DNA of 48,934 nt from a virus (Duplodnaviria; Heunggongvirae; Uroviricota; Caudoviricetes), in IMG/VR virus record IMGVR_UViG_2531839665_000028, one strand, 5' to 3'. Positions 6,446-8,320 of the stretch are shown here, piece by piece (position 1 is the first letter of the stretch; the number at the start of each line of letters is the position of its first letter). Under the pieces are notes generated by a model. It saw only the letters and a program-made list of their open reading frames with translations. It did not search any database and had not been told where the DNA came from. The position numbers were made by a program, and so were the translations under genes.

Positions 6446-6808
6446 TTAATGACCTGCTGCGCGGAGTTTTCCGTCAGGTTCACCGGCAAGAGTCAGTAAT
6501 TGTCCCTGGTCTTCCTGCAGAATAGTCAGGCGACCACCGCGATTGACATACATCGGCGTTTCGGTGGTGTCTTCTTCGGAAATTTTCCCGCGGTTAGTCG
6601 GGCGAACATATGAGAGTTTGTGTTTGATTTTCACACGGTTCTCATCAAACGGTTCGATTTCCAGGTTGAGCGAGACCTTACCTTTGGTTTTCGTGTTCAT
6701 CACACCGGAAGCGACTTCACTGAGAACAGCGCCGATTTTGGTTTCAAATACGCCGCCGTCCAGCTCCCCGATAAATGCCTGCACATCAGTACTGCGTTCG
6801 CTAGCCAT
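6446..6808 (-). CDS. YfdP-like protein (120 aa)
   Basis: The track ORF extends to 6994, but the ATG at 6808 has an AGGAG RBS and gives 120 aa (MASERSTD...). Confidence 0.5.
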   Translation of the reverse strand: MASERSTDVQAFIGELDGGVFETKIGAVLSEVASGVMNTKTKGKVSLNLEIEPFDENRVKIKHKLSYVRPTNRGKISEEDTTETPMYVNRGGRLTILQEDQGQLLTLAGEPDGKLRAAGH

Positions 6809-6856
6809 TTTGCTGCTCCTCATCATATCGACCCTGCAAGGTCGGTTGGTTTCTCC

Positions 6857-6957
6857 ACAAAACAGAGAAGAACACCTGCGGTGACAGCCGCCCGGATGGA
6901 TTGGGTTATGAGCCCGTCGTCCGGTGATGCTCTTCTCTGTTTTGTAAAAAGAGCGGT
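6857..6957 (-). promoter_or_regulatory. Early-left leader structure: boxA-like CGCTCTTTTTAC followed by a 15-bp inverted repeat (possible nut- or put-like antitermination element)
   Basis: Minus strand reads CGCTCTTTTTAC (forward 6944-6955), then inverted repeats ACAAAACAGAGAAGA / TCTTCTCTGTTTTGT (6857-6871 and 6931-6945) flanking about 60 nt. Confidence 0.3.
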
Positions 6958-7436
6958 ACCAGCCGGAAGCAAGTGTACAAACTGGTACCGCCAAAGCAGT
7001 GGCTGCTGTGGTGACCGGTGCTGATCTCCGGCTTGCGGTTATTTCAGACTCTCACGGGCGTTTAATTGCCCCGCCGAACAGCTCTTTTCCGCAATAGCTG
7101 CAATGTCTTTCGCGCATCAGCCTGCGCATTCACCACAACGCTGAGAGCACTTAGCCAGTTACGGCACCACACTTTGTCGCGGTTCCATAAATGCCCTCAT
7201 CGTTGCACCCTGGTCTCTTCCCAGGCGTCAAACCGAATCGCCACGCTGGTTAGGCGTCTTATCAGCGTCATCATTGACTTGCACATTCCGGCTACCTGGT
7301 TTGTTTGCTCGAGCAAGGAGTGGATTGTCCCCTTTAACGTCACCAGACCGCTAACGACGCATGTGCCATACGCCGTGTTACAACCAAATTTTGTTAGTAC
7401 CTTGTTTGTATGTCTGGAAAGAAAGATAAAATGAAG

Positions 7437-7475
7437 TTGCGCATTATGCAAGTGTTTTTATTGCGAGATATGCAA
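7437..7475. promoter_or_regulatory. Putative OL operators (two TTGC-N7-GCAA sites) and leftward early promoter region
   Basis: TTGCGCATTATGCAA (7437-7451) and TTGCGAGATATGCAA (7461-7475) match the TTGCGCGTTAAGCAA site on the other side of cI. Confidence 0.45.
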
Positions 7476-7482
7476 TTTGGTG

Positions 7483-7508
7483 GGTGATGAAAAGCCACCT
7501 TCTGGTGG
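7483..7508 (-). terminator. Rho-independent terminator downstream of cI
   Basis: Minus strand GCCACCAGAAGGTGGC hairpin followed by TTTTC, just after the cI stop. Confidence 0.45.
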
Positions 7509-7530
7509 CTAATTGATGTTGAGGTAGGGG

Positions 7531-8223
7531 TTAATTGTGTCGCTTAAGGGTTTGTGACTGACTGATTAAGACCTTTCCAAAGACCATAAACCGATGTTCG
7601 TTTTCGCTGGTAATTCCCCATTCGCGGTAAATCTGATTATCAGAAATTACCAGCAGTTTATCAGGTATCATTTGCAGTCGTTTGACGTAAATTTTATCAT
7701 CAAAACCAAATACATATATACCATCCCCATCAAACTGATTGATACTGATATCAACGAAGATGAGATCTCCTGGCTCAATGGTTGGACACATACTGTCCCC
7801 ACGAACGTTGATAACTTTAATGTGATTTGCTGGTCGTCCACCAAACATCGATACAGCATTATCAGTTCTGTATTCAATGGCATGAATCACATCAATGACA
7901 TCACCGCCCTGGATAAGGCCATTTCCCGCACTGGCACTGACATCCAGCATTTCAATACGGAATACATCCTTCACCTGCGCAACATCCTCACTAATACTGT
8001 TTTTACATACAGTATTACTTTTGAGGTCTGAGGTAAAGAGATCAGCAATATCAACACCTAAGCTCCTGGCAATATTACTCAGGGCTTGTTCAGTGAATTG
8101 TTTCTGCTTACCTGTTTCGAGGCGCGAGATATTCGCCGCATCCACTCCTATTGCTTCAGCGAGATCGGCGATTTTCATGTTCTTCGCCTGGCGAAGTTGT
8201 CTGACTCGATTTCCTATGTTCAT
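7531..8223 (-). CDS. cI: CI-like prophage repressor (HTH_XRE + S24 LexA-like peptidase domain)
   Basis: 230-aa ORF with N-terminal HTH (...KIADLAEAIGVDAANISRLE...) and C-terminal S24 autopeptidase region (...GDSM...KRL...). No Shine-Dalgarno before the ATG, consistent with a leaderless pRM transcript. Confidence 0.85.
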   Translation of the reverse strand: MNIGNRVRQLRQAKNMKIADLAEAIGVDAANISRLETGKQKQFTEQALSNIARSLGVDIADLFTSDLKSNTVCKNSISEDVAQVKDVFRIEMLDVSASAGNGLIQGGDVIDVIHAIEYRTDNAVSMFGGRPANHIKVINVRGDSMCPTIEPGDLIFVDISINQFDGDGIYVFGFDDKIYVKRLQMIPDKLLVISDNQIYREWGITSENEHRFMVFGKVLISQSQTLKRHN

Positions 8224-8320
8224 GCGTTTATTACATTTCTTTATTGCGCGTTAAGCAAATCAACTTGCGCAAAATATTTGCGTGAAATAATATGCTCATC
8301 ACGCAATATGTGGAGGTTAT
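8224..8320. promoter_or_regulatory. Immunity-region OR operators and divergent pRM/pR promoters
   Basis: Intergenic region between divergent cI and cro: TTGCGCGTTAAGCAA (8244-8258), palindromic TTGCGCAA, and TTGCGTGA ... TCACGCAA inverted repeat. Confidence 0.5.

Follow-up and report, generated by a model that had tools for sequence, protein, structure and literature searches.

The locus considered here raises the question of what lies between the early-left promoter and the first early-left gene of a lambdoid phage that has Q for its late genes and no N. The DNA analysed, a 48,934-nt stretch referred to below as the window, is a phage of the mEp460/SfV/Stx2c type, and the assignment of 6808-8320 and its surroundings to the immunity region of a lambdoid phage is supported (Table 1). 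A repressor combining a helix-turn-helix with an S24 self-cleavage domain is divergent from a helix-turn-helix Cro (Pfam), and repeated dyad operators flank cI and overlap pL, pR and pRM, as these promoters are read from the sequence. The TTGC-N7-GCAA motifs originally noted on either side of cI are exact at OL1, OL2 and the first OR site; there are 5 exact matches in the window for 1.77 expected, a count reached in 1 of 100 shuffles, and 3 of the 5 flank cI. A refined 16-mer, TATTGCG-N6-GCA, has only three perfect matches in 48.9 kb, at 7459(+), 8242(+) and 8293-8308(-), all of them within OL or OR, and the last of these is a fourth operator site that the original prediction had overlooked. 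Where the immunity region of phage SfII aligns with the window, the two DNAs are about 90% identical; the half-sites are conserved there, and the spacer and central bases vary. Judged by motif count and by half-site conservation in SfII, the pattern lies far beyond chance, and the operators are real motifs, to which CI is predicted to bind.

The -35 hexamer of the proposed pL is overlapped by OL1, and hexamers and spacing are kept in SfII despite differing flanks; homology to heteroimmune Stx2c phages stops at about 7395. Absence of a Shine-Dalgarno sequence upstream of the cI ATG (8223) was confirmed, and the suggestion of a leaderless cI mRNA is plausible, as the proposed pRM, a block invariant in SfII and mEp460, would set +1 on the A of the ATG. 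An alternative cI promoter returned by the scan (TCCACA-16-TATTAT, 8314-8287) would give a leader of about 57 nt, likewise without a Shine-Dalgarno sequence.

Table 1. Features of the immunity region and early-left leader (window coordinates; promoters and operators as predicted from sequence).
Feature	Position	Strand	Description
YfdP-like first early-left gene	6446..6808	-	120 aa, function unassigned, not N; phrog_204
Small hairpin and Shine-Dalgarno	6816..6846	-	Hairpin CGACCUUGCAGGGUCG (6846-6827), GAGGAG (6821-6816); other hairpins replace the small hairpin in relatives
Long hairpin	6857..6945	-	~21-bp lower stem, three-way apex with conserved CGACGGGCUCAUAACCCAAUCCA; -46.7 kcal/mol
Intrinsic terminator tL0	6946..6991	-	Hairpin GGCGGUACCAG...CUGGUACCGC (6991-6953), U-tract UCUUUUU (6952-6946); includes CGCUCUUUUUAC
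sRNA-17 homologue	6947..7140	-	TL, spacer and terminator
TL motif	7005..7139	-	135 nt, closed multi-helix RNA
P0 hairpin	7140..7206	-	GCAACGAUGAGGGCA ... UGCUCUCAGCGUUGU; spacer hairpin preceding a tRNA or TL motif in phage tRNA arrays
Module D	7206..7380	-	Conserved four-helix RNA, 5' end of leader
Proposed pL	7423..7451	-	TTGCAT (7451-7446), 17-nt spacer, TATCTT (7428-7423); predicted start ~7415
OL1 operator	7437..7451		TTGCGCATTATGCAA; overlaps proposed pL -35; half-sites conserved in SfII
OL2 operator	7461..7475		TTGCGAGATATGCAA; 24 bp from OL1
cI terminator	7489..7510	-	Hairpin AGCCACC-AGAA-GGUGGCU, then UUUU; annotated terminator in SfII
cI repressor	7531..8223	-	HTH and S24 peptidase
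Proposed pRM	8223..8258	-	TTGCTT (8258-8253), 17-nt spacer, TGTAAT (8235-8230); +1 at A of cI ATG
OR operator	8244..8258		TTGCGCGTTAAGCAA; overlaps proposed pRM -35
Half-site	8265-8269		TTGCG; between both OR sites
Proposed pR	8265..8293	+	TTGCGC (8265-8270), 17-nt spacer, TAATAT (8288-8293)
OR operator, inverted	8292..8308		TATTGCGTGATGAGCAT on minus strand; overlaps proposed pR -10 and start
cro	8321..8581	+	HTH_3

From the predicted pL start, the minus strand of 6809-7415 (about 607 nt) would form the untranslated 5' leader of the repressor-controlled early-left transcript. The open reading frames of 6808-7436, considered implausible from the outset, are indeed not real genes. A 36-aa frame across the TL core (7062-7172) was dropped because its conservation pattern is that of RNA helices, and the frames of two families of unknown function, phrog_3651 and phrog_33599, overlap conserved noncoding DNA and do not survive a comparison of phages, in which 2-nt and 25-nt indels break them. 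The entire leader folds better than shuffled sequences (z = -3.85), and it is a mosaic of noncoding blocks common to unrelated phages, parts of which are found in 2727 of 5426 complete E. coli genomes; among the RefSeq matches listed, no annotated feature lies beneath it. A search of the leader with Rfam 15, at the gathering cut-off and at E up to 10, returned nothing relevant, and none of its modules is duplicated elsewhere in the window. The structure conservation analysis that had been proposed for this region was carried out, and the modules are conserved with covariation support. The leader is neither a nut site nor a decayed N gene, but a series of structured RNA modules, each independently mobile, transcribed in the order module D, P0 hairpin, TL motif, tL0, the hairpin of about 21 bp, and the small hairpin beside the ribosome binding site of the YfdP-like gene.

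The TL motif consists of a closing stem P1 (9 bp here, 7 bp conserved), AAU, a P2 hairpin GCGCA-GGCUGA-UGCGC, a variable domain, and a P4 hairpin GCCGG-AGAUCAGCA-CCGGU stacked on P1. A covariance model built in this analysis (R1), trained without window-type sequences, scores the window copy at 83 bits (E 5e-24). Paired cells make up 97.7% of the alignment and 24-48% of slid controls, compensatory changes affect 6 of the 7 P1 pairs, and an unconstrained fold yields the same helices. The P2 and P4 loops are complementary (GCUGA/UCAGC) in 90-100% of rows, a figure to be read with the P2 stem and the L2 and L4 loops held fixed by the exact-word retrieval; 6 distinct loop variants occur in 12 contigs (1 compensatory, 1 wobble, 4 mismatched), and a gapped pattern scan for loop-loop covariation returned only 2 contigs. 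TL occurs in at least 120 viral contigs with nearly invariant core loops. Like module D, it is found in P1 and epsilon15-like phages, and it is also present in T1-like phages, HK620 and many metagenomic phages; in phiV10 its slot is occupied by a real tRNA-Arg, and in true N-dependent phages it lies between nutL (boxA/boxB) and N. It has no match in Rfam, and neither ARAGORN nor the Rfam tRNA model recognises the region as a tRNA cloverleaf. An encoded NCCA after P1 was considered and found unsupported, the tail being merely A/C-rich and G-poor. A limited literature search turned up no publication that treats TL as a structural family. TL is a widespread, unannotated family of tRNA-shaped RNAs. 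In geometry, the leader offers 7+5 bp stacked helices and a 21-bp stem as possible substrates of RNase P or RNase III.

Module D, at the 5' end of the leader, is a second conserved structured RNA without a match in Rfam, with 26 pairs of which 8 show compensatory changes (RNAalifold). In P1 it follows trnI upstream of ban, and in epsilon15-like phages it heads a leftward tRNA-Arg unit. Near-identical leaders differ in what follows P0, which may be TL, a cassette of different sequence that shares the outer stem, or a genuine tRNA-Arg(UCU).

The boxA-like motif on which the original prediction had built its antitermination proposal finds another explanation. The string CGCTCTTTTTAC is present at 6944-6955 on the minus strand; CGCUCUUUUUAC, however, corresponds to the 3' shoulder together with the U-tract of an intrinsic terminator, in which a stable hairpin on the transcribed strand leads directly into the U-tract. 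Across the window, SfII, phiNP, Adana and Flotzy, a hairpin and an invariant CUUUUUACA are kept, whereas the GCUCUUU core is not (CGUCCUUUUU in SfII, CGCCCUUUUU in phiNP, CGACCUUUUU in Adana, CACCUUUUUU in Flotzy). The hairpin sequence is replaced outright in Flotzy, and the terminal hairpin has about -18 to -25 kcal/mol in 4 of the 5 phages compared. A boxA consensus scan of the window revealed no excess (18 found, 20.2 expected). The 3' end of the RNA from a near-identical homologue, given by RACE and a full-length primer AAAAGAGCGG..., lies in the tL0 U-tract (PMC7719688). The boxA-like string is thus the tail of a terminator. The inverted repeat noted just downstream, at 6857-6945, does exist, with arms (6857-6881 and 6921-6945) of 25 nt that are 84% complementary, and by analogy the long hairpin that it forms may be considered a candidate RNase III site.

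These modules can be joined in a model of pL leader function to which we assign somewhat better than even odds (roughly 0.55). CI bound at OL1 and OL2 would shut off pL. When pL fires, most transcripts would stop at tL0, and the resulting product of about 470 nt would be cut at the base of the TL closing stem, right after P0, much as tRNAs are excised from an array, to leave a stable TL RNA of about 193 nt. Transcripts reading through tL0 would become early-left mRNA, possibly after a cut by RNase III within the long hairpin, by analogy with the lambda N leader. Read-through could be a passive leak, or could be promoted by an RNA further upstream, e.g. module D. Ahead of tL0 the leader RNA is rich in G and poor in C (C/G 0.53-0.93), and so offers Rho little to load on.

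An RNA of this size has been published. TL, spacer and terminator together are the 193-nt sRNA-17 of E. coli K1 strain RS218, which was sized by RACE and seen on a Northern blot, and whose locus lies in an mEp460-like prophage between a DUF2303 gene and the repressor gene (PMC7719688). This RNA was mapped onto the window by way of the coordinates, alignment and primers given there: the first two blocks of the UTI89 alignment row agree with the window from 6947 onwards apart from a single mismatch, the probe and the RACE primers show that the RNA has the sense of the window minus strand, and the ends map to about 7140 and 6947. It was published as a stand-alone, ArcA-regulated sRNA without Rfam relative, and the available text makes no mention of a placement in a pL leader, a terminator, a fold, a family or relatives in N leaders.

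This published view, in which sRNA-17 is a free-standing gene with its own ArcA-repressed promoter in 7141-7388 and merely happens to lie between pL and the early genes, is the best-placed competitor of the leader model, although we consider it unlikely. The lysogen in which the RNA was detected had been grown in LB, a condition in which pL is expected to be repressed, and this counts against the leader model; the level of the RNA rises about threefold in an arcA mutant, phosphorylated ArcA shifts the 7141-7388 fragment in EMSA, and the authors assign an ArcA-controlled promoter (PMC7719688). That EMSA, however, used protein at 20-80 uM, and no sigma-70-like promoter match is found on the minus strand of 7140-7420. 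The authors' qRT-PCR amplicon maps to 7388-~7001, so that a transcript spanning D, P0 and TL exists; as its forward primer begins at 7388, the far end of the 'promoter' fragment, the RNA measured starts upstream of that fragment. Moreover, the mapped 5' end falls at the foot of a conserved stem, where processing would be expected to place it, and in P1 the same elements are found inside an operon, after tRNAs.

Alternatively, module D, or the D-P0-TL array, might act in cis as a put-like RNA that renders RNA polymerase resistant to tL0 and downstream terminators and replaces N. Such an RNA-based element had been envisaged in the original prediction, which is half right on this point, inasmuch as the leader does contain several conserved structured RNAs. 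Similarity to HK022 putL and putR is limited to chance-level 9-mers (E 9.5), and the pR operon contains no second copy. Both here and in heteroimmune relatives, 25-35 nt separate module D from the predicted pL start; in epsilon15-like phages it stands at the head of a leftward unit containing tRNA, and here it lies upstream of a terminator that needs to be passed in a phage without N. The mEp phages were collected as Nus-dependent, mEp460 not being named individually (PMC11893012), which hints at an active antitermination system outside the leader model. On the other hand, module D lies 2.4 kb inside an operon in P1, and an RNA-based antiterminator in this leader is a conjecture, which we regard as rather improbable.

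It could also be argued that a phage tRNA island became trapped 3' of pL and that the leader is what is left of it, without any function, as its blocks adjoin tRNAs in P1, IME207 and phiV10. This seems very unlikely in view of the compensatory changes that preserve its helices, the near invariance of the TL core loops among such diverse viral contigs, the presence of leader parts in so many E. coli genomes, and the stable RNA and deletion phenotypes reported in PMC7719688.

Regarding N itself, the original statement that no N gene can be recognised was upheld by the sensitive search then recommended: Pfam and PHROGs gave no N match among all stop-to-stop frames of 6780-7480 and the early ORFs scanned, whereas PHROGs does detect N-like proteins in related contigs. 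The alternative of an unrecognised small N-like protein fares no better, as an arginine-rich-motif scan of 1866 ORF variants also found nothing plausible in the early region. The window has neither a lambda-type N with its arginine-rich motif nor nut sites, i.e. a conserved boxA with a 15-nt boxB hairpin in both early operons. An N/nut system of the lambda type whose small N has escaped recognition, or a boxA/Nus-factor system of the rrn type using CGCUCUUUUUAC, for which the resemblance to boxA (CGCUCUUU) and the Nus-dependence of the mEp collection (PMC11893012) may be invoked, is hardly credible given the unconserved core in the four relatives, the pairing of half the motif within the terminator stem, the lack of a boxB-type 15-nt hairpin after it, of any other boxA in the early region by consensus scan and of an N-like ORF, and the canonical TGCTCTTTAACAA found upstream of TL in true N-type relatives.

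The pL leader model, together with the RNA families on which it draws, has several implications. It corrects an attractive misreading, in that the apparent boxA is the tail of a terminator. If sRNA-17 indeed belongs to a repressor-controlled early-left prophage leader, the output of this virulence-linked RNA would be tied to the induction of the prophage and not to a promoter of its own. Two conserved structured RNAs without Rfam match, TL and module D, are brought to light, and the occurrence of TL at the apex of the N-leader stem in N-dependent phages, together with its exchange for a real tRNA elsewhere, offers a concrete handle on why phages keep such RNAs in operon leaders. How lambdoid phages lacking N pass their early terminators becomes a directly testable question.

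Comparison with known systems brings out both likeness and difference. In N-dependent relatives, TL lies between nutL and the N start, at the apex of an outer stem (GGCUUUGGGGUGUG.../...CACACCACCAAAGCU) that is the same as in the lambda N leader, whose large stem is said to have been described as an RNase III site by Steege in 1987, Kameyama in 1991 and Wilson in 2002. The interiors in lambda and phi80 are not TL: with the TL model, lambda gives no match, and the one match in phi80 is not significant (8.5 bits, E 0.25) and lies far from the N leader. Unlike the lambda N leader, the window has a closing stem of only 9 bp, no nutL, no N, and a terminator downstream. With HK022 put it shares a cis RNA just 3' of pL in a lambdoid phage without a conventional N, but put is a paired element (putL, putR) of about 70 nt and two stems, whereas the window leader has neither sequence similarity to it nor a second copy, and the TL model has no significant match in HK022. 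The T4 species 1 and 2 RNAs (rnaC, rnaD) are likewise non-tRNA structured RNAs co-transcribed with phage tRNAs; the TL model does not match them at a reporting limit of E 1, and species 1 has a canonical T-arm at its end, a feature absent from TL.

A further likeness is to the STnc100/PasD prophage sRNAs (RF02076; bioRxiv 10.64898/2026.05.13.724894), which have the same layout as TL: a closing stem ...GGUG is succeeded by AAU, by one hairpin on the 5' side and others inside, and by a last hairpin, CCGGN-loop-NCCGG, that abuts the closing stem; a terminator comes next. In the window, the STnc100 core (18580-18703) is the second-best match to the TL model, over the full length (13.3 bits, E 0.039), and cassettes of SfII and P1 are intermediates carrying the CCGGGAGGCACCCGG hairpin of STnc100. 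In the reverse direction, the Rfam STnc100 model, whose gathering score is not reached, has no match in 6400-7600 even at E up to 10, and STnc100 differs in position, being located in the late region after tRNAs and not in a pL leader. One might speculate, with little confidence, that TL, its cassette relatives and STnc100/PasD form one large family of tRNA-shaped phage RNAs, which would use tRNA slots and tRNA-type processing and be installed in early (pL/N), late (pR') and P1 ban operon leaders for a purpose of their own, e.g. as decoys against tRNA-targeting defences or as scaffolds for a variable arm, with the upstream module D serving in phages without N, such as this one, as a new kind of RNA antiterminator by which polymerase gets past the TL terminator.

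The lambdoid cI, cro and cII set returned by gene calls and domain searches bears out the assignment of 6808-8320 as an immunity region. By sequence comparison the region shares 98.9% identity with mEp460 and 97-98% with several further E. coli phages, Stx2 phages among them; its left boundary is the ATG of the YfdP-like gene. The operators proposed on both sides of cI are found there, with exact TTGC-N7-GCAA copies at 7437, 7461 and 8244, i.e. three of the five in the window (1.77 expected). A stricter consensus, TATTGCG-N6-GCA, is matched perfectly at just three places in the window, 7459(+), 8242(+) and 8293-8308(-), all within the operator groups left (OL) or right (OR) of cI; the last is a predicted fourth operator. 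Half-sites are conserved in SfII and central bases differ, a signature of protein contact sites. The predicted promoter blocks are conserved in SfII and mEp460. Six bases separate the predicted pRM -10 box from the A of the cI ATG, a position that fits the leaderless cI mRNA of the original prediction; a promoter scan gave an alternative pRM candidate further upstream.

Features of the immunity region, its leftward leader and the late regulator
Feature	Position	Strand	Remarks
YfdP-like gene	6446-6808	-	first early-left gene; 120 aa, function unknown
TL motif	7005-7139	-
Module D	7206-7380	-
pL, predicted	TTGCAT(7451-7446)-17-TATCTT(7428-7423)	-	start near 7415; read from sequence
cI	7531-8223	-	HTH and S24 peptidase domain
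pRM, predicted	TTGCTT(8258-8253)-17-TGTAAT(8235-8230)	-	read from sequence
pR, predicted	TTGCGC(8265-8270)-17-TAATAT(8288-8293)	+	read from sequence
cro	8321-8581	+
cII	8574-9125	+	CP76-type
Q antiterminator	15021-15377	+

The absence of a recognisable N gene was confirmed: no N-family match was obtained in any leader frame or scanned early ORF, and an arginine-rich-motif scan of the early regions gave no credible candidate. PHROGs recognises N-like proteins in related contigs, so that the search is able to find an N, and the small N-like protein once suggested for antitermination has no counterpart among these frames and ORFs. The boxA-like motif fared no better. When the 200 nt of leader farthest from the promoter were aligned across the window, SfII, phiNP, S.Typ Adana and Flotzy, CUUUUUACA proved invariant, whereas the supposed boxA core varies (CGCUCUUUUU, CGUCCUUUUU, CGCCCUUUUU, CGACCUUUUU and CACCUUUUUU, respectively). 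Directly upstream lies a hairpin, GGCGGUACCAG...CUGGUACCGC (6991-6953), and at the equivalent position in Flotzy an unrelated one, GUGCCCA...UGGGCAC. Four of the five phages have a terminal hairpin (about -18 to -25 kcal/mol) that reaches to the U-tract; a quick fold of the Adana segment gave a weak hairpin only. A hairpin with an invariant U-tract on the transcribed strand indicates an intrinsic terminator (tL0), and the boxA reading was rejected, the core not being conserved and the motif forming the terminator's tail. The early region as a whole lacks a canonical boxA, and a scan found no excess of boxA-like sites over expectation.

The leader, the predicted untranslated 5′ part of the pL mRNA, consists of RNA modules in series. 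Sensitive DNA searches resolve its 627 bp into a mosaic of blocks shared with different phages: the promoter-distal 185 bp are common to SfV, SfII and SfIV, 7004-7152 to a P1 variant, the T1-like phage IME207, HK620 and many Klebsiella phages, and 7133-7389 to phiV10 and P1. None of these blocks matches Rfam. The whole leader folds more stably than its shuffles (z = -3.85), and as far as tL0 its RNA is rich in G and poor in C, suggesting poor Rho loading. The long stem-loop noted earlier, a 21-bp stem at 6857-6945, is of sufficient length to be a candidate for RNase III; it is retained among relatives, where one change is compensatory and two are disruptive. As regards the proposed RNA-based put-like element, the leader does contain conserved structured RNAs, and a put-like role for one of them, module D, is conjectural. 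Of 5426 complete E. coli genomes, 2727 contain parts of the leader and 845 have 80% or more of it; no annotated features lie beneath it among the RefSeq matches listed. Several annotated "hypothetical proteins", SfII_35 (at SfII 2949-3287), mEp460 gp36 and gp37 (3483-4036) and PhiV10p04, overlap the leader's conserved modules, or a tRNA, from the opposite strand. Leader frames match phrog_3651 and phrog_33599, families of unknown function that match only conserved noncoding leader DNA and may therefore rest on similar ORF calls.

Module D, a 22-mer of which occurs in at least 120 contigs, has a consensus of four helices with 26 pairs, 8 of them compensatory, among eight diverse copies. It starts 25-35 nt past the predicted pL start in the window and in heteroimmune relatives, whose homology sets in at just this point. 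P1 has it between trnI and ban, and epsilon15-like phages at the head of a leftward unit with tRNA-Arg. Its position is consistent with a possible put-like role. The mEp phage collection has been described as Nus-dependent in a paper that does not name mEp460 (PMC11893012).

TL is a closed motif delimited by its flanks, and at least 120 IMG/VR contigs contain its 17-mer UGCGCAGGCUGAUGCGC. Its parts, in order, are the closing stem P1, AAU, the P2 hairpin (GCGCA-GGCUGA-UGCGC), a variable insert (roughly 30-200 nt) and the P4 hairpin (GCCGG-AGAUCAGCA-CCGGC), which stacks directly onto stem P1. Among 49 elements less than 85% alike, 97.7% of cells were paired, against 24-48% with slid partners, and compensatory changes affect six of seven P1 pairs and two P4 pairs. 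A covariance model trained without any window-type sequence scored the window copy at 83 bits (E 5e-24). The P2 and P4 loops are complementary (GCUGA/UCAGC), with mixed covariation evidence for pairing. Some inserts (IMG/VR loci such as L013 and L040) carry hammerhead-like cores (CUGAUGAG...GAAAC) or a tRNA-type T-arm (GGUUCGAGUCC).

In all copies TL is on the strand of the neighbouring operon. It lies within the ban operon of phage P1, adjoining tRNAs; upstream of tRNA-Ser and tRNA-Arg in IME207; in the late leader of HK620, between qut and the terminator; and, as in the window, after module D and the P0 hairpin in Enterobacter phage Tyrion. Leaders near-identical to that of the window carry after P0 either TL, a genuine tRNA-Arg(UCU), or a cassette that differs in sequence and shares the outer stem and the AAU junction. 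Among 102 unique metagenomic copies, a tRNA lies within 600 nt on the same strand in 12 and on the opposite strand in none; a hairpin and U-run follow in 29, a ribosome-binding site and ORF in 26. This ORF is an N protein (phrog_271) in several contigs, where boxA and boxB stand just upstream of TL and stem P1 is extended into an outer stem, GGCUUUGGGGUGUG.../...CACACCACCAAAGCU. In the P1 ban operon (AF234172) the TL model finds copies at 3777-3878(-) and 3494-3617(-) as well (62.9 and 28 bits). They lie on the other strand from the annotated ORFs upl and plp, which may have been called spuriously, and the 62.9-bit copy shows compensation in its P2 stem (GCACA/UGUGC).

A study of E. coli K1 RS218 (PMC7719688) describes sRNA-17, an RNA of 193 nt by 5′/3′ RACE, seen on Northern blot, at 4535226-4535418 on the negative strand, in a 1152-bp "intergenic" region of a mEp460-like prophage and, per its authors, without Rfam relative. 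If a hypothetical ORF is ignored, this region equals 6382-7530 of the window. sRNA-17 falls at about 6949-7141 by offsets and at about 6947-7140 by the published alignment and "full length" primers (AAAAGAGCGGTACC..., CGTTGTGGTGAATGCGC...), and the published probe and RACE primers give the minus strand. On these published details, sRNA-17 is TL plus terminator: its 5′ end is one or two bases at most from the foot of stem P1, and its 3′ end is the supposed boxA. Its authors' model, in which sRNA-17 has its own promoter, is retained as a less probable alternative. The published "promoter" fragment is 7141-7388, i.e. P0 and module D with pL outside, and the published qRT-PCR amplicon (7388 to about 7001) could only come from a longer transcript running through D, P0 and TL; taken together, these suggest that sRNA-17 is a leader product, which would be processed and terminated. 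On the minus strand at 7381-7400, TAACAAAATTTGGTTGTAAC, TAAC is repeated at a distance of 16 bp, which corresponds to about +15 to +35 from the predicted pL start; the two repeats match the ArcA direct-repeat pattern of that study, whose EMSA fragment includes only one of them.

Further RNAs are found rightward. Rfam places isrK (67.9 bits) and C4 antisense RNA (83.6 bits) side by side at 9482-9670(+), within ORF 9122-10273 and upstream of Ash/Rha antirepressor domains. The pair forms, within the rightward operon, a P1 immI-like module of antirepressor control, and the start of the 383-aa ORF was probably called too early, since its N-terminal part overlaps both RNAs. At 18191-18820, tRNAs Met-CAU, Arg-UCG and Arg-UCU stand immediately before STnc100 (175.6 bits), AgvB is on the other strand, and no stx gene separates the tRNAs from STnc100; in the Stx2 phages that PMC12370729 describes, the stx2 operon is followed by STnc100 at a distance of 75 nt. 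An AraC-family HTH protein gene, 17449-18162(+), lies between the Q region and the tRNAs, and two leftward genes at 15390-16851.

The STnc100 core (18580-18703) is the second-best match in the window to the TL model, full-length and weak (13.3 bits, E 0.039). SfII, Adana and P1 cassettes at the equivalent place score 22-28 bits, the exact 3′ hairpin of STnc100 recurs in the SfII copy and one P1 copy, and folding gives TL, these intermediates and STnc100 a common closed layout. This relation is regarded as a family resemblance rather than membership. Stem P1 of TL, 7 bp in nearly all copies, abuts the 5-bp P4, the geometry of the tRNA acceptor/T-arm stack. Phage phi80 produces a small early "M3" RNA, an RNase P substrate, which may come from its N-leader region, 8800-9000(-). 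This leader has the same outer frame as the TL-bearing phi80-like contigs L105 and L010 with another interior, so that the N-leader stem looks like a cassette-exchange site. The lambda N leader has the same outer stem, GGCUUUGGGGUGUG.../...CACACCACCAAAGCU, as the N-bearing TL contigs, and the interiors of the lambda and phi80 N leaders are cassettes different from TL.
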